Virus record (IMG/VR): IMGVR_UViG_3300032277_002983 | Span: 1-37,701 of that record | Origin: a virus | Taxonomy: Duplodnaviria; Caudoviricetes | DNA length: 37,701 bases | Strand: one strand, 5' to 3' | Shown: positions 2,251-37,701 of the stretch, in pieces | Numbering within the stretch: the stretch's first letter is position 1 | How the letters are laid out: each line of letters begins with the position of its first letter | The notes under the pieces: model-generated | The model's database searches: none | What the model was told of the DNA's origin: nothing | Seen by the model: only the letters and a program-made list of their open reading frames with translations | Translations under genes and position numbers: made by a program

Positions 2251-4734
2251 TTAACCTTGATTTATAGTGATGTTTAACGCGGATAACTCAATCAATCCGC
2301 TACCAATTGCTAATGTTATTCTGTATTCGACATAACGACCATTCCGGATTGTGCCTGTAATGGTGGTCCACGCGGACCATGCAATTGCATCATCGGACCA
2401 TCGAGCCTCACGCGTTATTGTTGTCGCGTTTGTTGTGTTTGAGTCGTTTATTACAAAATTTACAATAGCGCCTAAGTCGATTTGAGTGTGCTCATATCGA
2501 ACGCCAGACAAATATGGGTTATCGATCCAGCTGGTCCATGCGTCCCATGTACTGGGTAATGTGGCCCATGTAGATTGTGATTCAGCATAGATATTTCCGT
2601 TTGTTTCTTTCCGTGCCTGAGTAAGCGTTCCGGGCCACCCGAGCGCTTTTGCATCCTCTGTCAAAATTGCGGTGCCAAGTCTTTGAGGTCCTAACGTAAC
2701 CTCTGTTGATACTGCGTTAGTTGACTCATTTCCGGTGGTGTCAACCGCTTTCACCAAAAAGGTGTAAGCGCCTGCGCTTAACTGGTTAGATTCAAATAGT
2801 CTTAATCCGCCATCTATCAACTCGCCGCCGGGCACGTCTGTAGCAGTAGCCCACGTTCCTCCAGTTCCTGATTTGTAGCGGAAATGAAAGCCACGAAGGT
2901 CAACTGGCGGCGAACTATAAACCCACGAGTACTCACGCGTGCCGTCAGCTTGGCGTTGCACGGTAATTGAATTAACATCACCAGGCGGGGCGCTTTTTCC
3001 CTCAATTAATTCTGAGGCGATAACCCAATCGCTGATAGCGCCCTGACCGTTAACGTGCCTGATTCGGAAATCATAGTTTGTGTTATCCTCTAAATTCTGG
3101 ATATAAACACTATTTCCTGTCCTGGCATGCGCTGAATTACCTGGACGGTAATCGCTATCCGATGATTTTTTGAACTCAACCTCTGTTCTAACAACAAAAA
3201 TATCGTTAGGTGAATTCCAGCTTATCAATGCCCTTGTAATTAACGTTTTATCCTGAGCTATTAATATTTGCGACTCAGACCCATCTATAGCCAATCCTGT
3301 CGGGTCAGAAACGTCGAAAGGGTTTGGTAATTCAGTGTTATCAGGCGGTGTTTGTTCCGCGCTAACGGTACGGTCATAAACCGCATCCTCATGCTCAACC
3401 AACGCAACGGCAACATTACCAAATTGTGTTAAATCAAGGTTTGCAACACGGAATTTTTTAGCCGTCCATCCGGGCGTATCATGAGTTACTGTGCAAATAC
3501 TGCCAGCCTTTACTTTTAATGCCTCAATGGTGGAAACAAAACCAACCGTTATATTTTCACGGCTTTCCTTCAGAATTGTTTCGGCACGATGCAAAGCGCG
3601 AGAATAGCTTGTCTCGTAAAGATTTGATATTTCTTTCTCAAGAACAAGCCCATTATCATCATTCAAAAATGTGACAGAATCTTTTATTGCAACGTCTGCC
3701 TGATAATCTTTAGCAGGATTTGCAAAGCGCACTTTAACTAAATTAAGCCTGTCTGTTTTGCTTGTACCTTTAAATGACCAGCCGCCAATTATGTTTGTTT
3801 TGTTAAAATCAAAAACGCCCACACCCTGATCTCTAATTACTAACTCGTACTTCCCCTGTACGTACGGCAAAATGCCTCGGCATGTTGTAAGTAATAATTT
3901 TATATTATCAAGCACTTTTCGTTCTGTGTTTACTGACCCGTTTATTGCAAAAGTGTCCTCTGTGCTTGCATCAGTAGTGCTTATAGTTTGCTGCACCTCG
4001 CAGGTATCGGCGGCAGAAATGATTGCTGCGTCATCGACATCATTGGCTGCCGTCAAACCACGGCCATAAATTGTATTTGTTAAATAGTCACGTATAACTA
4101 GCGCTGGATTAGTTGAATATACCGTTGTTGTTGTACGTGGGTCATAAACTTTTTTGCCTTTAACGTCGCATGTAATGCGCGGGAACCCTGAATAAGCCTT
4201 TCTGTTTTCATCCCATTTAAAACGACATGCGAGATACGCCAAGCCTTTTAATTGATGAGCGCTAGTCCACAGTGACGGAAATGCAGCCATCATTGTCGGG
4301 TCTGCGGCTTGGGTCACTGTCCCGGTATATTTTGTCATATCAACAAGCCCGTTAAATTTAGGGGAAATTGTATTTTGATCGTTGATATATACGTCGTTTA
4401 TTGATTCAATTTCGCCCTCACACAACACAAGGACAATGTGCAAATATTCATTGTTTGTGCCTGAGACCCAACCAGGTACAACGCGAATGCCGCCGGTCCG
4501 TCGTTCGCCATAAATTACCGGTATCTTTTTTGTTGCGCTATCGAGATTTAATAAAATTCCTTTTTCTGGTTCCGGTGCTTCTGGCGCATCTACATCCAGC
4601 ACTGTTCCCAGCACGTTGCTTATTGCGTCACCAGCTAAATCCAGTATTCCCTCGCCTACATCCTGGATTCCATCAACAACAGATTCGCCAAAGTCCTGTA
4701 CTGCGTCCTTGATATCACGAAATGGATTGCCCAT
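2251..4734 (-). CDS. Tail tip / host-specificity protein (lambda J-like, FN3 domains)
   Basis: 827 aa; IPVIYG, LCEGEI, VKGKKVYDPR and STNPAL.IRDYL motifs; FN3-like segments (YDFRIRHVN, YTFLVKAVDTTGNES). Confidence 0.85.
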   Translation of the reverse strand: MGNPFRDIKDAVQDFGESVVDGIQDVGEGILDLAGDAISNVLGTVLDVDAPEAPEPEKGILLNLDSATKKIPVIYGERRTGGIRVVPGWVSGTNNEYLHIVLVLCEGEIESINDVYINDQNTISPKFNGLVDMTKYTGTVTQAADPTMMAAFPSLWTSAHQLKGLAYLACRFKWDENRKAYSGFPRITCDVKGKKVYDPRTTTTVYSTNPALVIRDYLTNTIYGRGLTAANDVDDAAIISAADTCEVQQTISTTDASTEDTFAINGSVNTERKVLDNIKLLLTTCRGILPYVQGKYELVIRDQGVGVFDFNKTNIIGGWSFKGTSKTDRLNLVKVRFANPAKDYQADVAIKDSVTFLNDDNGLVLEKEISNLYETSYSRALHRAETILKESRENITVGFVSTIEALKVKAGSICTVTHDTPGWTAKKFRVANLDLTQFGNVAVALVEHEDAVYDRTVSAEQTPPDNTELPNPFDVSDPTGLAIDGSESQILIAQDKTLITRALISWNSPNDIFVVRTEVEFKKSSDSDYRPGNSAHARTGNSVYIQNLEDNTNYDFRIRHVNGQGAISDWVIASELIEGKSAPPGDVNSITVQRQADGTREYSWVYSSPPVDLRGFHFRYKSGTGGTWATATDVPGGELIDGGLRLFESNQLSAGAYTFLVKAVDTTGNESTNAVSTEVTLGPQRLGTAILTEDAKALGWPGTLTQARKETNGNIYAESQSTWATLPSTWDAWTSWIDNPYLSGVRYEHTQIDLGAIVNFVINDSNTTNATTITREARWSDDAIAWSAWTTITGTIRNGRYVEYRITLAIGSGLIELSALNITINQG

Positions 4735-4737
4735 TAA

Positions 4738-5295
4738 TTAAGACCTGCCCCATTTTAAATCCACCACTTTATCACCGGAATATTCTAAACCTTTATCACC
4801 CGGATAATAATATTGCTGATCTTCGTTGTTAGACCTTCTTCCAGCAACACGCTCAAAGTCAGCCCAGTGGCTCGCTAATGCCCAAGTTAAGGATGCGGTT
4901 CCTTCGCTTGGATCTTCTTGAAATGAAAAGTTTGTTACATAATAGTCATGTTGTATCGGGCTGGCGATTACCTGGGGTTGCGAATCAAGTATTGCGCGTA
5001 AAATTGTAACTTTCCGGTTTATATAGTTTTCGCTTAATGCCACCGAAACATTAGACAAATTTGCCCCGGAAAGCGTTATATTTAAGCTGTTAAGCTGCAC
5101 ATTTGCCGTTTCTTTTATTGACGATATTTTTAATATTCCGATACCTGGCAAATAAGTATTGCCGCCATAAACAATTGATCTACTCCACGTCGTCAAATAA
5201 ACATCAGTGCTAAATGCAAAATGTATTAATAAAAATGTTTTTATTTGTTGCTGAGATAACGCTGATTGCATTTCAGCCGATAATGTTCTGCTCAT
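4738..5295 (-). CDS. Baseplate hub / minor tail protein (gpL-like)
   Basis: C-terminal DQQ.YYPGDKGLEY....DLKWGR motif; lies between Dit and tip genes. Confidence 0.75.
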   Translation of the reverse strand: MSRTLSAEMQSALSQQQIKTFLLIHFAFSTDVYLTTWSRSIVYGGNTYLPGIGILKISSIKETANVQLNSLNITLSGANLSNVSVALSENYINRKVTILRAILDSQPQVIASPIQHDYYVTNFSFQEDPSEGTASLTWALASHWADFERVAGRRSNNEDQQYYYPGDKGLEYSGDKVVDLKWGRS

Positions 5296-6704
5296 AACGA
5301 CTCTATTAAGTCTAATTCGAAATCATGCAGCATTGGCGGATTTACATCGTAAATTTGACTGTCATCGACGAGCGATACTGTGTATGCAACATTGTTTACT
5401 GTTGCGGCGACTCCATCGGCAGGCATTATGTTTAGTTCCGGGTATACCGTAATGTGGCATGCACCATCAGGTTCTGTGCTAACGTCATCTGTGTTTATGT
5501 AAACCTTTGAGTCCCCCAAAAAACTAATTAAATCGCCAGCGCGCAACCAATTAACCTGCGATTTTGTCGCATTTGATAAAATCAAACTGTGCGCCTGATC
5601 TGGATTTCGAGTGACAGTTATATTGTCGAATGTTGATATGTTTGTTGCCGATTGCCCATCGATGCACCATATATATGTAATTTCTGATACAGCTGTGAAT
5701 GTAAAAGTCCGACCTACTCCAGTACCATCAATGAAACCTAAATCAGGCCCATTTTCTGGGTTAGCTATTGTTGGGTGAGCCGCAATTCTTGATAGCGTTT
5801 GACTGCCGGTTATAATGTCGCCAACAACGGTGTATTGATCTCCTGTTTTTGTCAGCACTGCTTGACGCCTGCCCATCCAGACAGAATTGCTGCCCTGTGT
5901 TATTGTCAATATCCCAGAAGCAATTGAAGTGCTTCCGCCAGACGAAGAATTCAGATCTTGAGCCCAGCAAAAATCACCATAAAATGTTCCGTTGCCGACT
6001 AAATTGGACGACCCAACAACCGAAATGTTATCAAATGTTGATGACGAACTTGCAGATTGACCATCGATACACCAAATGTAAGTTGTTTCTGATATGGCAT
6101 TAAATGTTAATGACTGACCAGCCCCTGCGCCAGCAACGTCAGCCAATTCAAACGGACCTGATCCAGGATTAGTTGCCGATGAACTAACGCCGACCCTGGT
6201 TAATGTTGCGTGACCCGATACTATATCAAAACCTACGGTATAAGCGCGACCTATAGCGGTTGATATGGCCTGATACCTGCCCATCCAAACAGAGCTTGTC
6301 CCTTGCGTGACAGTTAGAATGCCCCCTGAAATTACTGTCGTGCCACCAGGCGAACCGTTTAGATCTTCAGTCCATCCTGTATCCGACCCAAAATCGCCTG
6401 ATGATACCAAGTCAACAAACCCAACAACAGGCGATCCACCACCTTCACCGCGCGGCGAAGCCGTTTCAGGCGGGATTACCGTGAAATTACCATAACTGCC
6501 CTGCTGTGACATAATAAACGCCCACAACGGCCTGAATTCATCTTTAGACATATCACTGTTATAAGTCAGCGTTAGCCCCCATAGGTGGCCCCCGACTTGC
6601 CGGGAATTCTTTTTACCTGATTGAGCTACATCAGAAACATTCGCATAACGTGATTCTACCGTTACTTTTTTAAATTTCGGCGATGATGGTAATTGTCCAC
6701 TCAT
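5292..6704 (-). CDS. Distal tail protein (Dit) with two inserted carbohydrate-binding-like domains
   Basis: Immediately after the tape measure gene; Dit-like N- and C-terminal parts flank a tandem ~133-aa duplication. Confidence 0.7.
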   Translation of the reverse strand: MSGQLPSSPKFKKVTVESRYANVSDVAQSGKKNSRQVGGHLWGLTLTYNSDMSKDEFRPLWAFIMSQQGSYGNFTVIPPETASPRGEGGGSPVVGFVDLVSSGDFGSDTGWTEDLNGSPGGTTVISGGILTVTQGTSSVWMGRYQAISTAIGRAYTVGFDIVSGHATLTRVGVSSSATNPGSGPFELADVAGAGAGQSLTFNAISETTYIWCIDGQSASSSSTFDNISVVGSSNLVGNGTFYGDFCWAQDLNSSSGGSTSIASGILTITQGSNSVWMGRRQAVLTKTGDQYTVVGDIITGSQTLSRIAAHPTIANPENGPDLGFIDGTGVGRTFTFTAVSEITYIWCIDGQSATNISTFDNITVTRNPDQAHSLILSNATKSQVNWLRAGDLISFLGDSKVYINTDDVSTEPDGACHITVYPELNIMPADGVAATVNNVAYTVSLVDDSQIYDVNPPMLHDFELDLIESL

Positions 6705-32081: not shown

Positions 32082-32294
32082 ATGCTACGCCAACGAATAA
32101 CATTAAAAACATACCTCGAACTCGTTTACCCCATGGGTGACGGTCCCTGTATAAATACGCTAAAAAATCGTATCAATAAGGGCGTCATCCAAGGCGTGAG
32201 AGAAGAAGGCAGTTATTATGTCTACCTTGATCAAACTGACAACAGTAAATCAGGACAGATTGCTAATGCAGTTTTAGCGGCTGTTGGTGGGTAG
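32082..32294 (+). CDS. Excisionase-like winged-helix protein
   Basis: ITL..Y.......P..NTL...I..G.I.G...G..YYV pattern; upstream of the integrase. Confidence 0.65.
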   Translation: MLRQRITLKTYLELVYPMGDGPCINTLKNRINKGVIQGVREEGSYYVYLDQTDNSKSGQIANAVLAAVGG

Positions 32295-32296
32295 TT

Positions 32297-32521
32297 TTGT
32301 TAGGGATACCGATGAAATACCAGAAACAAAAAACATATAAATTTACTGCAGGGGATCGATATCACCTGGATCAGGTGTACTCATTATTGGGCATTATACC
32401 TAACGACACATACGAGCAAGATGATATGTCGTTATATCGTTATGATAACGGTAACGATTGCGGCGAATCAGTTAAATTTTTAAAAAATGTAAAAATTAAA
32501 ATAATAATGGAAATAACTTGA
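32297..32521 (+). CDS. Hypothetical protein (likely start ATG at 32312)
   Basis: AT-rich ORF preceded by GTTAGGG. Confidence 0.55.
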   Translation: MLGIPMKYQKQKTYKFTAGDRYHLDQVYSLLGIIPNDTYEQDDMSLYRYDNGNDCGESVKFLKNVKIKIIMEIT

Positions 32522-32524
32522 CTA

Positions 32525-32655
32525 CAGTAACTTTAAGTATGCGCCCGACACTAGCTAAATCGAATTGGAGCGGCAACTCCTTGGTAAAAACTGTTGTTGT
32601 TGGGTTGCAGTGTCACACAATGCTTAATAACATGGGCGCATACTTAAGGTTGCTG
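32525..32655 (+). ncRNA. Putative structured RNA closed by a 22-bp helix
   Basis: CAGTAACTTTAAGTATGCGCCC / GGGCGCATACTTAAGGTTGCTG with both mismatches G-U on the + strand; inner GACACT/AGTGTC and GGAG/CTCC stems. Confidence 0.5.
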
Positions 32656-32660
32656 AATAG

Positions 32661-32954
32661 ATGAAAGAGATTGCAACAAAACATCTAAAACAACCTTATT
32701 TGACAATAAAGCATGGACAAAAGAGGGTAAGTTCGATTTGCGGTAGAAAACCGTATATCGTCAATATTGCCACTCACGATCCGCATACGCCATCAATCGA
32801 CGTATGTGAAAAGTGCATGGCCAGGCATCGCAAAATGCTGCTGAGACTGGCTGATACAATAGCTGATATAAAACATCGCGGGTTACCGACAGTCTCGCAC
32901 AAGAATGAGTACGTAGATTTAGTTAAACGAGTGAGAGTCAGCAGACCTACGTGA
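32661..32954 (+). CDS. Hypothetical protein (H..L, ICG, CEKC; possible zinc binding)
   Basis: 97 aa ORF. Confidence 0.55.
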   Translation: MKEIATKHLKQPYLTIKHGQKRVSSICGRKPYIVNIATHDPHTPSIDVCEKCMARHRKMLLRLADTIADIKHRGLPTVSHKNEYVDLVKRVRVSRPT

Positions 32955-32993
32955 TGTTGCGTCTTAATAATTTAGTTAGAACAGGGATAAAAA

Positions 32994-33827
32994 ATGAAGA
33001 AACTTTGCATTTACCACGGAAACTGCGCTGATGGTTTTGGTGCTGCTACCGTAATTAGAACTGCTTTAGGTAGCCACAATGTTGACTTCCACCCAGGCGT
33101 TCACCAAGATCCTCCGCCAGACGTAACAGACCGCGAGGTGATACTGGTTGATTTCTCATACAAGCGTGACGTACTCGTTGGGATGGCAGCCAAAGCCAAG
33201 AGCATATTAATTATCGACCACCACAAGAGCGCCGAATCTGACTTAGTTGATTTGTCAGACAACGTAGAAGCTCACTTTGATATGAGTAAAAGCGGCGCTG
33301 TTATGGCGTGGGAATACTTTCACCCAGGTGAACCCATACCACAACTGTTGCTGCACATTCAGGGTCGCTATTTATGGGAATTCAAGCTAAAAGGCACTCG
33401 CGAAATTCAAGTCTGTGTTTTTTCTTACCCATACGAATTTGAAATATGGGAACAGCTACTATGCGCCGATCCTAAGAAGTTGCGCGAAGATGGAAAAGCC
33501 ATTGAGCGCAAGCACTTTAAAGACATTGAGGAATTTATCGCAGCAGCGGCTTATACCGACACTATAGCTGGGCACGAGGTTCCAATTCTGAATGCGCCTT
33601 ACTTCTGGAGCTCAGACGCTGGCCACATCATGGGCGAAGGTAAGCCATTTGCAGCTTGCTATTGGGATACGCCAGGAGGCCGGGTATTCAGTTTGCGCTC
33701 TGCTAATGATGGCGTTGATGTTTCAGAGATTGCGGCAATATTTGGTGGCGGTGGGCATAAGCACGCCGCTGGTTTTCGGCTCGCGTTTGATGACCTGCAT
33801 AAGCTTTCCAGTGGGGTTATATTTTAA
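32994..33827 (+). CDS. DHH/DHHA1 family phosphoesterase
   Basis: YHGNCADG, LVDFS, IDHHKS, FSLRS, GGGGH..AAGF. Confidence 0.92.
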   Translation: MKKLCIYHGNCADGFGAATVIRTALGSHNVDFHPGVHQDPPPDVTDREVILVDFSYKRDVLVGMAAKAKSILIIDHHKSAESDLVDLSDNVEAHFDMSKSGAVMAWEYFHPGEPIPQLLLHIQGRYLWEFKLKGTREIQVCVFSYPYEFEIWEQLLCADPKKLREDGKAIERKHFKDIEEFIAAAAYTDTIAGHEVPILNAPYFWSSDAGHIMGEGKPFAACYWDTPGGRVFSLRSANDGVDVSEIAAIFGGGGHKHAAGFRLAFDDLHKLSSGVIF

Positions 33828-33835
33828 GGTGAATT

Positions 33836-34198
33836 ATGGGTGATTTAAGCAAATATTTTAGTCGTTATGAAATGGCGTGTAAATGTGGTTGTGGGCTTGA
33901 TACGATGGATATCGAGACATTGCGCATTGCTGATGAAGTACGAGAGTTTGTAGGTGTGTCAATTACGCCCGGCAGCGCTGCGCGATGTTTTGTTTATAAT
34001 CGATCAAACGCTGTTGGATCGAACGACAACTCACAGCATCCACGCTGCCGGGCGATGGACTTACCGGTGCCTAATCCACGCAAGGTTTACAAATGGCTGT
34101 GTGACAAATATCCTGGTCAGTATGGGTTTGGTCTTTACGCGACATTTGTGCATATCGATACGCGGACCGACGGCCCGGCGCGCTGGGATAAAACATGA
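33836..34198 (+). CDS. Peptidase M15A family zinc peptidase (endolysin-like)
   Basis: F...E.ACKCGCG, S..RC...N, SQH...A.D, G.G.Y.TFVHID.R...ARW. Confidence 0.88.
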   Translation: MGDLSKYFSRYEMACKCGCGLDTMDIETLRIADEVREFVGVSITPGSAARCFVYNRSNAVGSNDNSQHPRCRAMDLPVPNPRKVYKWLCDKYPGQYGFGLYATFVHIDTRTDGPARWDKT

Positions 34199-34244
34199 AT
34201 GGACGGCTGAGCGCGGGCTTGTTAGCTGCACTAAGGAGCGATGA

Positions 34245-34562
34245 ATGCTTAGATTTTACGAGAATATGCTGAAGAAGATTATTCGCAACTTGGAAGATCA
34301 TTTTAAAAATGTACATTTATCCCGTATCCATACAGATATCAAATGCCCTAACTGTAATGAATGGTTCTCTGTTTCAGGTATAAAGTATAAGCACTCCCTT
34401 GAAAAAGAGCCTAAACACGACTTTTCAATCTGCAAATGTGGTCAGTGTGGCTTTAAGTCGAATTGGTCACCGCACATAGCTCCATGTTTAATTAGGGTAG
34501 ATGATAACGGAATACCTATTACTGACAGCCAACAAAAAAATTGTTATAAGGCGGATTTATGA
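34245..34562 (+). CDS. Zinc-ribbon hypothetical protein
   Basis: CPNC...CGQC; AAGGAG RBS. Confidence 0.65.
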   Translation: MLRFYENMLKKIIRNLEDHFKNVHLSRIHTDIKCPNCNEWFSVSGIKYKHSLEKEPKHDFSICKCGQCGFKSNWSPHIAPCLIRVDDNGIPITDSQQKNCYKADL

Positions 34563-34771
34563 AACAAGATGAAAAAGACCTGCTAGAAAGACTGCAAAAA
34601 CGAACAAAGGAAGATACCAGCCAGCCCTATGTTCGGCAATTGGTTGCAGACTTAGAAATGAATGAAAAACGGGCTGCATACATTTTGGAAAAATGGGCTG
34701 ACAAAGGATAGTACCAGTACGGTGTTAGCGTAATGGCGGGCTGGCTAACAGAGGAAGGACAAGCCTTATAA
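34559..34771 (+). pseudogene. 70-codon gene interrupted by in-frame TAG at 34709-34711
   Basis: MKQDEK...EKWADKG*YQYGVSVMAGWLTEEGQAL; the frame continues to a TAA inside the GCCTTATAAC boundary. Confidence 0.6.
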
Positions 34772-34880
34772 CAGCGGCTTATACCGGCACTATAGCTGGG
34801 ATAAAACATGAAGGGCTTCTGAGCGCTGCAAACAGCGTCAGCGGCACGCCAACGCCAGACTTTAACAGAGATTGTGAATT

Positions 34881-35123
34881 ATGAGCCACGTATTGCATGA
34901 AACTAATGATTGGAATGAAGACCTTGGAAATTGCATATTTTTTCATTTCAATAACTTTGAAGAGCCACCAGAGGTTCTTTGTAGCACACCGTACAGTTCT
35001 GATTTTGAAGAAGAAGGCGGGGAATATTGGACGCACTTTGTGACAATGAATTTCAATCTAATATTTGAACAAGCTGGAGCGACTTTAGGAGCGTCCAAGC
35101 GAGGAATGAGCGATGTTGAATGA
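34881..35123 (+). CDS. Acidic hypothetical phage protein
   Basis: W.ED.G...F.....EPP....P...DF....YWTH. Confidence 0.65.
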   Translation: MSHVLHETNDWNEDLGNCIFFHFNNFEEPPEVLCSTPYSSDFEEEGGEYWTHFVTMNFNLIFEQAGATLGASKRGMSDVE

Positions 35124-35277
35124 TTTGCTATGTTTTTTAAGAAAACATTTTCAATGCAGGTTTGGTGTTCATTGGCGTATGAAGTATGAGGGCGGATTAG
35201 TCAACGATATTTGTCGTGCCGGTAAGTGTGACGATTGCGGCTATGAACGTGAAGAAGTTAAATGGCCTAGAACATAA
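35113..35277 (+). CDS. Small Cys/His protein (54 aa, C.FG.H...CDDCG)
   Basis: Hand-translated; GAGGA upstream; stop lies inside AACATAAC. Confidence 0.6.
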   Translation: MLNDLLCFLRKHFQCRFGVHWRMKYEGGLVNDICRAGKCDDCGYEREEVKWPRT

Positions 35278-35341
35278 CAGTGATTTATGCCGCACGCAAA
35301 ATAAAAGAATTATTTTTTCAATTAGATTAAGTTTAAAAAAC

Positions 35342-36562: not shown

Positions 36563-37219
36563 TTAACCAACAGGACAGCCCTTCATGTTAATTTCTTTAC
36601 CAATATAGTTTGCTTCCGCATCAATTACAGGCCAGACAAGAGATCTCAATTTGTCCTTCCTTGAATTTCGGATCCAAAACTTAAGCTTACTTAAATCCAT
36701 AGAAAAAGTCCGACTTAGAACTTTCTCCTGCGTTCTCTTTGTCAAATGAAATATTGCAAATACAATACTTAGTGGCTTCAATATACACCATAGCAATGGT
36801 GATGTGCTTATGATGTGTCTTAACATGGCATGATGTGCGCGCTTCAATGTACGAAGCACAAGTTTTTTATTGTCCATTGAAAGTTCATTAAACGCGGCCA
36901 TAAAATTCTGCTGATAATCAGATGATCGCCTACCCTTGTATATAAATTTATGTGCGTAAATCATGACAAATATTTGCATCAGATTTACCTCATGAGTAAA
37001 TTGTATCATCCCATTTAATGTGGTTCTTACCGTGCAATAAGACGGGTTTTGAAACGAAATATCTTTTCGCAATGCCGCATCAAAAAATTCATCTCTGATT
37101 GTAAATAGTCTCTGGCGGGTGTAATCCAGCCAGTAATTTTGCTGAGCAACAAAGAACAGCCACCAAGCTAAAAATACAACAATCATGAACAGTATAAACG
37201 TTATGTCACTTTCTATCAT
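36563..37219 (-). CDS. Hypothetical membrane-anchored protein
   Basis: 218 aa, N-terminal TM, AT-rich. Confidence 0.75.
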   Translation of the reverse strand: MIESDITFILFMIVVFLAWWLFFVAQQNYWLDYTRQRLFTIRDEFFDAALRKDISFQNPSYCTVRTTLNGMIQFTHEVNLMQIFVMIYAHKFIYKGRRSSDYQQNFMAAFNELSMDNKKLVLRTLKRAHHAMLRHIISTSPLLWCILKPLSIVFAIFHLTKRTQEKVLSRTFSMDLSKLKFWIRNSRKDKLRSLVWPVIDAEANYIGKEINMKGCPVG

Positions 37220-37701
37220 AAATCCTCCGGGTGCGTGTCCCCACGTGCTGTTAATCCGCTAGTTGATCTACTCGGATCTAGCTGTCGCTCGAGCAACTCG
37301 ATGCGATAGTGTAGTTTTTGGACAGTATCTTTACGTAAATGTCTTTCACGATACGAAAAAATAATAGACCCTATAGCCACAAGAATTGCGAATATTGTAA
37401 CTAAAGCTAGGTAAACATTCCATTTTGACCCTGCGTTATATTTAATCTCCGCATTAAAAGATGTGGCTTTACCTGAAAATGACGAGATCACCATTGCAAG
37501 TGGCTCCGCAAATCCTAATAGCGCTTTAGAAAGAGGTTCTACTGCAATATATACTATTATAACTATAGACCCCCATTTGATGAGCGTATTGACTGGGGCA
37601 CCAAAACCCTTAATCAATAAAGCTGCATTTATGGCTTTTGAGTTATGGCTTGCTTTTCGCCTCTCTTGTTTTTGTTTTTTATTATTGCTTTTATTAGTCA
37701 T
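37216..37701 (-). CDS. Hypothetical two-TM membrane protein
   Basis: 161 aa; basic N-terminus, two TMs, C-terminal coiled coil; ATGA overlap and GGAGG RBS for the next gene. Confidence 0.75.
   Translation of the reverse strand: MTNKSNNKKQKQERRKASHNSKAINAALLIKGFGAPVNTLIKWGSIVIIVYIAVEPLSKALLGFAEPLAMVISSFSGKATSFNAEIKYNAGSKWNVYLALVTIFAILVAIGSIIFSYRERHLRKDTVQKLHYRIELLERQLDPSRSTSGLTARGDTHPEDL

Follow-up and report, generated by a model that had tools for sequence, protein, structure and literature searches.

The stretch of DNA analysed here, called the window throughout, is the full 37,701 nucleotides of the viral record IMGVR_UViG_3300032277_002983 (Duplodnaviria, Caudoviricetes). It is a lambdoid prophage with terminase and capsid genes, VapE-like and Toprim genes, a repressor, an antirepressor and DUF2303. 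Toward its right end, eight small plus-strand open reading frames (ORFs) separate an excisionase-like gene (xis) from a tyrosine integrase gene (int) by about 3 kb (Table 1), while the two genes are adjacent in lambda. The initial annotation of this DNA had noticed this gap and proposed that it holds integron-cassette-like units, with no integron integrase (IntI), that the phage exchanges with the cassette pool. The gap, its excisionase-like left border and the lack of an IntI were all borne out. The xis-like product (phrog_33468, unknown) has no Pfam match, and BLASTP against the Xis of a related prophage (L166) gave no match, but it reaches an ESM Atlas feature score of 0.95 to a cluster with 23% PF07825. 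The integrase does not match the IntI model TIGR02249 and, judging from its profile matches, is lambda-like and not an IntI; no intI gene was found in the window record. The genes in this gap include three bracketed units, with several broken attC arms on the opposite strand, and probably represent fossilized cassettes of a pool carried by phages.

The three units had been described as beginning with a GTTRRRY-like core and ending, at the stop codon, with its own reverse complement. Every motif string quoted for them was found in its place, and the brackets stood up to a control comparison. Under a single fixed rule, a bracket of at least 7/8 is present in 3 of the 8 accessory genes and in none of the 40 other genes of the window (Fisher P=0.003). 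Mismatched pairs of starts and ends score 7/8 in 5.2% of cases (binomial P=0.006), and the 10/10 pair at 34543-34772 is unique at that score in the window. Complementary end cores, a mark of cassette origin, are therefore present in three of the eight genes; brackets of at least 7/8 also occur in 21 of 22 units of intact phage arrays. All three fall in the four units closest to the integrase, and the M15 peptidase unit shows a possible, weak 6/8 bracket (33816 / 34187). The cores are less regular than proposed: none of the six is a strict GTTRRRY, a motif not enriched in the window (86 occurrences versus 77 expected), although relaxed cores are common in real sites. Unpaired cores had also been listed at 32299, 32975 and 33816; the sequences are present, but their arm P values of only 0.05-0.4 are weak, and no partner core was found for the one at 32299-32305.

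In their ancestral frames, genes A and B had a stop codon within the end core, as shown by homologs that end at, or run to, the bracket stops; this is not true of every present frame. It had been suggested that a mismatch at 34526 turned TAA into CAA and extended gene A. This is well supported, as the gene reads past its former stop at 34530, now CAA. Of 51 homologs found, 15 were aligned, and 14 of these extend no further than residue 95, the bracket point. For gene B, the bracket had been placed at the current stop, which is incorrect: a premature TAG at 34709 now terminates the ORF, and the old in-frame TAA (34769-34771) lies inside the bracket. All 13 other homologs of gene B continue across the TAG position, and five are exactly 70 aa long, the length that ends in the bracket. 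The site between A and B is indeed collapsed, with 9 nt between cores 34533 and 34543 compared to 57-123 nt in whole control sites. Gene D starts inside a site remnant and has its stop within its end core.

Sites were searched for with a structure scanner, which found 54 distinct attC sites in 17 of 20 control regions beside intI in bacterial genomes and no match in 308 kb of shuffled DNA, and with a covariance model (R1) built here from 40 of these 54 sites. Neither detected an intact attC in the window, so that the two or more sites needed for a CALIN (a cluster of attC sites without integrase) are lacking. Generic arm matrices, nhmmer and short blastn against 90 sites gave nothing significant.

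The firmest remnant lies at 35085-35134. A 19-nt pattern taken from 35101-35119 retrieved 14 loci from viral contigs, representing 11 distinct contexts, and R1 matches over the pattern on the opposite strand in 12 of the 14 loci (9 of the 11 contexts), many of them inside arrays. Outside the pattern, 13 of the 14 loci agree with the window at 14-22 of 23 bases, and the best of the family (L228) is identical to window positions 35090-35131 at 40 of 42 bases. The window copy has an altered core and has lost its partner arm; a low-depth contig from run X1 carries the same arm continuing into an intact partner arm. An attC-derived border is thus firm here and weak at the other arms. Inside this remnant, on the plus strand, are GAGGA and the start codon (ATG) of gene D. 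In 6 of the 11 listed loci an ORF begins from the same in-site ATG behind GAGGA with MLNDLL, MLNELL or MLNALL, a type of start shared by the N-terminus of gene D, and in 2 further loci of the 11 an upstream frame passes through that ATG. A 24-nt form of the pattern was absent from 401 genomes of one bacterial class (the sample behind our bacterial tallies of intI, family pattern, hairpin relatives and gene profiles includes two unpublished genomes, G040 and G118, whose sequences were not drawn on). Another pattern, taken from 35079, gave three matches only and was set aside as chance.

The bracket reads alike on both strands, which is why its polarity was hidden from the initial annotation. 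When the arms of the six bracket cores were scored without the core, they fitted the inverted polarity (combined P=0.003 for a bacterial model and 0.0003 for a phage one) but not the direct one (P=0.36 and 0.14, respectively). The flanks proposed as attC halves thus fail in the direct reading that had been claimed and behave as attC pieces in minus-strand polarity only, with genes antisense to attC and the stop in the complement of the R' box. The layout of a classical cassette, with the ORF on the top strand and attC downstream, is replaced here by the inverted one. The same polarity prevails in related loci. From 168 phage and prophage loci we surveyed 99, each turned so that the cargo homolog read on the plus strand, and omitted near-duplicates and distant DHH matches; in GC-rich phage loci the strand of the anchor gene was used, since antisense shadow frames over DHH mislead ORF labels. 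R1 gave 44 matches in 14 of these loci, 43 of them on the minus strand, and the lone plus-strand match is the shadow of a stronger minus match. Among the 54 bacterial control sites, 44 have same-strand ORFs on both sides and none has opposite-strand ORFs on both sides.

Some of the same genes are true cassettes elsewhere, as the initial annotation had suggested checking. The closest viral homolog of gene A (58%, L202) is an intact inverted cassette with a 9/9 bracket; the gene C domain in L166 forms an 8/8-bracketed unit preceding a whole minus-strand site, while two other gene C homolog loci have no site; and the DHH homologs in L012 and L015 are perfect inverted cassettes with 8/8 brackets. 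Beside the closest DHH homolog (L093) stands an intact site whose last 11 bases are those of the core at 34221; they are also the final 11 nt of the diverged arm at 34199-34228, and the next gene of L093 closes in the perfect complement of that core. No intact-cassette homologs were found for B, D, the M15 gene or the two left ORFs, and profiles of genes B and C gave no confirmed locus in viral contigs. Profiles of genes A and B gave no match in 400 genomes of one bacterial class, a search without a positive control.

A true IntI adjoins an inverted array in two viral contigs, L012 of G410 (479 bits) and L090 (415 bits). Both (L012 2128-7300; L090 1481-3701) have complete integron-like layouts, with IntI co-oriented with the inverted cargo and a DHH homolog within or adjoining the array. 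Dense intact inverted arrays are also present in L218, L226 and L223 (7, 9 and 4 sites per 3 kb, respectively), with no tyrosine recombinase match in these records. In L166, where xis and int are adjacent, intact and decaying inverted sites (3600-6270) lie upstream of the pair. Better test objects than the dead locus of the window are intact arrays, for example those of L218, L226, L012 and the phage PH101.

A rearrangement scar follows bracket B. The sequence after 34772, earlier taken as a left-half flank, copies part of the DHH coding region (33544-33572) at 28 of 29 positions, and homolog comparison places that part as native to the DHH gene. The copy starts exactly at the C of the AA|C crossover, with no match further left, and at a second joint a shared 6-mer fuses it to a copy of the end of the M15 gene (34182-34202, 20/21). 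Such a start would be expected where G|TT has exchanged strands with a secondary site.

Table 1. Features between and including the xis-like and int genes (window coordinates; ".", no strand assigned).
Feature	Coordinates	Strand	Basis
Excisionase-like gene, 70 aa, left border of insert	32082..32294	+	ESM Atlas score (see text)
Unpaired core 4 nt past xis-like stop; possible R'' box, weak	32299..32305	-	arm P 0.07-0.11
69-aa ORF, no family, no bracket	32312..32521	+	family and bracket searches
Strong hairpin, 22-bp near-perfect stem, AAC/GTT at base, between two ORFs	32525..32655	.	z=-5.7
97-aa ORF, weak phrog_2358, no bracket	32661..32954	+	profile match
DHH phosphoesterase gene, no bracket, runs into core 33816	32994..33827	+	phrog_4771, E 1e-98
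M15 peptidase (endolysin-like) unit; gene 33836-34198	33816..34198	+	PF08291
Diverged R''-L'' arm	34199..34228	-	arm P 0.05-0.17
Probable cassette remnant A, 7/8 bracket; gene 34245-34562 on +	34221..34533	-	bracket scan
Collapsed site between remnants A and B	34526..34549	.	9 nt separating cores
Probable cassette remnant B, 10/10 bracket; gene from 34559 on +	34543..34772	-	bracket scan
Rearrangement scar after bracket B	34772..34815	+	DHH copy fused to M15-end copy
Orphan L'-R' arm ahead of gene C	34847..34870	-	arm P 0.026-0.027; resembles family arms
Gene C, no bracket	34881..35123	+	homolog alignment
R'' (core mutated), spacer, L'' and loop of phage attC family	35085..35134	-	family identity
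Probable cassette remnant D, 7/8 bracket 35127 / 35271; gene 35113-35277	35113..35278	+	bracket scan
L'-R' arm or target site, integrase-proximal edge	35272..35295	-	arm P 0.02-0.06
Lambda-like tyrosine integrase, 380 aa	35342..36484	+	PF00589, phrog_1

Gene C runs into the next site remnant and encodes 80 aa, compared to 64-73 aa in its homologs. It is flanked, over 34847-35134, by an L'-R' and an R''-L'' arm, each similar to one and the same attC family; these arms represent either one split site or two deletions. No partner was found for the arm next to the integrase, whose edge reads GTT; this would obey the GWT rule for target sites, but the edge may instead be an attC arm. The M15 peptidase belongs to a PHROG endolysin family, and its gene is placed among the early accessory genes, a long way from the late ones. 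The hairpin between the two left ORFs, absent from the initial annotation, has no Rfam family (chance-level matches only) and no relatives, and was rejected as an attC since R1 does not match it and its near-perfect stem lacks unpaired features. Over the whole window, Rfam gave nothing at gathering level and only chance-level matches at E up to 1. Promoter-like sites, checked as candidates for the cassette promoter Pc, are at chance level. The motif AACAGAGATT was considered as a sign of attI and dropped, as it occurs in 9 contexts in 240 loci, near chance by estimate.

The right border of the prophage is documented by a 1.1-Mb metagenome contig (L165) with an identical copy of the right end of the window that continues to tRNA-Val and uvrB. 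The tRNA-Val(GAC) gene (L165 8109-8185), about 290 bases past the window end and adjoining uvrB, is likely the attachment site; there is no tRNA gene within the window. A 38,193-base contig present in two runs terminates within the same tRNA gene. Contigs of three runs showed no excision or insertion joints, which does not exclude rare events, and those of runs X1 and X3, possibly the source of the window itself, cover the region without differences or joints. No relatives of the integrase were found in viral contigs, and elsewhere only two distant proteins without genomic context; blastn of the region against cultured phages gave no match. Prophages G414 and G415 were considered as a second xis-int case and dropped, as their integrase is located elsewhere. 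An outer-membrane beta-barrel gene (PF13505; 27123-27722) adjoins the repressor and is possibly a lysogenic-conversion gene, and past int (36563-37701) lie two minus-strand ORFs that are membrane-like and low in G+C (phrog_13156, phrog_27816).

Several results weigh against reading these genes as fossil inverted cassettes. The covariance-model scan that the initial annotation had called for found nothing significant over the window with R1 (best E 0.37; best in the region 10.6 bits, E 1.5), and region-wide arm counts do not exceed those of shuffles, of which 14 of 150 and 21-22 of 200 reach the observed counts (P about 0.1). Five of the eight accessory genes have no 7/8 bracket, and permuting ends among the eight gives marginal values (P=0.035 for the count, 0.12 for summed scores). 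The polarity test leans heavily on one site, 35127, and the 14 R1-positive loci of the survey include near-duplicates, leaving about 6-7 lineages by eye. Twelve of 13 gene A homolog loci have no attC, that is, they carry ordinary phage genes. On the minus strand the scar has GCT as its DHH triplet, which departs from the GWT consensus, and its start resembles the arm at 35274 at 15 of 19 positions; given this resemblance, homology-guided recombination is a possible origin. Inspection by eye showed nothing resembling the intI-proximal junctions of L012 and L090, a resemblance that would point to an attI. Searches gave no close relative whose xis-int gap is empty or has other contents, and a possible gradient of decay toward xis draws on eight genes.

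The main rival accepts the same fossil cassettes but has them assembled in the integron of another phage and imported as a block by ordinary recombination, with no IntI acting here. In its favor, phage-encoded IntI with inverted arrays and a DHH homolog exist, attI and intI were not found at this locus, and the second joint of the scar shows 6-nt microhomology, besides the likeness of its start to the arm at 35274. We consider it unlikely, since the scar begins exactly at the crossover base, no fetched locus combines two of the cargo genes (tblastn), and two non-homologous breaks would be required within the short xis-int gap. Much less probable is chance, namely that short inverted repeats happen to stand at gene ends in a mosaic accessory region of the ordinary kind. 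The lack of a model match, the arm counts near those of shuffles and the unenriched GTTRRRY count suit it, but the 40/42 identity to an intact attC family, the absence of brackets from the 40 control genes, the old stops in frame at the cores and the intact cassettes around homologs do not. For units A, B and D chance is largely refuted already; in the left half (32299-33815), with little direct evidence of cassette origin, it remains likely.

The original proposal, that direct-orientation cassettes were taken from or given to a chromosomal integron of the host, appears slightly more improbable still. Brackets are identical in both polarities, direct phage clusters exist (R1 finds three plus-strand sites in TJE1, where the two ORFs seen are also on plus), and IntI is common in the sampled bacterial class (61 of 151 genomes). 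The arms nevertheless misfit direct polarity, the family sites lie opposite to the genes, and pattern and cargo were found in none of about 400 bacterial genomes. Least probable of all is that the lambda-like integrase of the prophage itself recombines the hairpins. It is placed like intI in phage integrons, downstream of the cargo and co-oriented with it as in L012 and L090, but it has no IntI profile match, the prophage ends at tRNA-Val as is typical for a normal phage integrase, and no tyrosine recombinase match was obtained for 4 of the 5 viral records that have intact arrays, among them two rated complete.

Cassette origin with inverted polarity is therefore the reading we favor, with a probability of roughly 0.85. 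The locus carries the brackets, the old in-frame stops, the family identity at 35085-35134 and the inverted polarity, with neither an intact site nor an IntI. It is neither an integron, nor a CALIN by test, nor a set of direct-orientation cassettes; it is real but decayed. For the proposed exchange with the cassette pool, this supports the cassette origin of the bracketed units, with a phage-borne pool; exchange with a bacterial pool is not shown, and present-day exchange is unsupported because the sites are dead remnants. A cassette would arrive as a circle, and its folded attC would recombine at G|TT on the minus strand by means of IntI supplied in trans. A gene antisense to attC would then be co-oriented with the phage early transcript and would need no Pc promoter. 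Hairpins may subsequently have been lost by slippage-type deletion, leaving chiefly those segments in which a stop codon, or a ribosome site with a start, is located, and the reading of genes C and DHH into the next site would be a consequence of such deletion. Confinement of the brackets to the four int-nearest units suggests that insertion was probably repeated near the start of the integrase gene, displacing older units toward xis. This whole route, from phage pool through IntI in trans to hairpin deletion, appears somewhat better than an even bet.

More tentatively, and short of even odds, phages may keep a cassette pool of their own, with genes antisense to attC and the site supplying the start. 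The xis-int gap would then be a repeat landing site with its cargo ordered by age and xis pushed 3 kb from int, and ordinary genes would enter and leave the cassette state. If so, phages would be a place where cassettes are made and retired. Integron-type recombination would also be a route to phage mosaicism that leaves few traces, and standard attC tools would miss a locus such as this one. Members of these gene families exist in three states, as plain phage genes, intact inverted cassettes and fossils, and offer concrete material for the question of how cassettes are gained and lost.

Phage attC clusters are already published. Qi et al. (2023; PMC9892861) described 17 phage CALINs, and of the six phage sites that they tested with IntI1, five recombined, including two from PH101. 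In PH101 (KR534323, 75916-77990; our locus L240), R1 places three attC on the plus strand and all 8 annotated ORFs are on the minus strand, so that an inverted array was already within their tested material. The accessible portion of that text gives no account of ORFs antisense to attC, of starts inside attC or of decay, and the available parts of three further sources (10.1101/030866; 10.1101/2022.02.06.479319; PMC8618304) hold nothing on inverted genes. We found no paper describing inverted phage cassettes in a search mostly outside subscription journals, although PH101, by our site calls, appears to show the polarity. The phage CALINs, as far as that text describes them, share with the present locus small attC-bounded genes in an IntI-less phage, but the locus has no intact site and hence cannot be called a CALIN. 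Loot et al. (10.1101/2022.09.11.507474), in the part available, report IntI insertion at genomic GWT (attG) sites and propose attC loss by slippage. Their SALINs are likewise cassettes off-platform, likely placed by IntI and fixed by attC loss, but they are single cassettes in bacterial chromosomes, whereas here several inverted units lie in a prophage, with a GCT triplet at the scar.

As in the lambdoid int-xis module, a lambda-like integrase at a tRNA gene is accompanied here by an excisionase-like gene and early accessory genes, but about 3 kb of cargo lie between xis and int. The related prophage L166 differs as well, since its xis and int are 15 bp apart and its cassettes lie upstream of xis. 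Classical arrays, with IntI, attI, Pc and attC, obey structural rules described by Nivina et al. (2016; PMC5027507), who, in the portion available, state that promoter-facing cassettes were never seen in integrons. Compared with such arrays as presented there, the prophage locus has no intI, attI or Pc that we could find. It shares with them the R''/L''/L'/R' anatomy and the complementary cassette ends, but its genes are antisense, and the attC lies at the head of the gene, for which it can provide both the ribosome site and the start.

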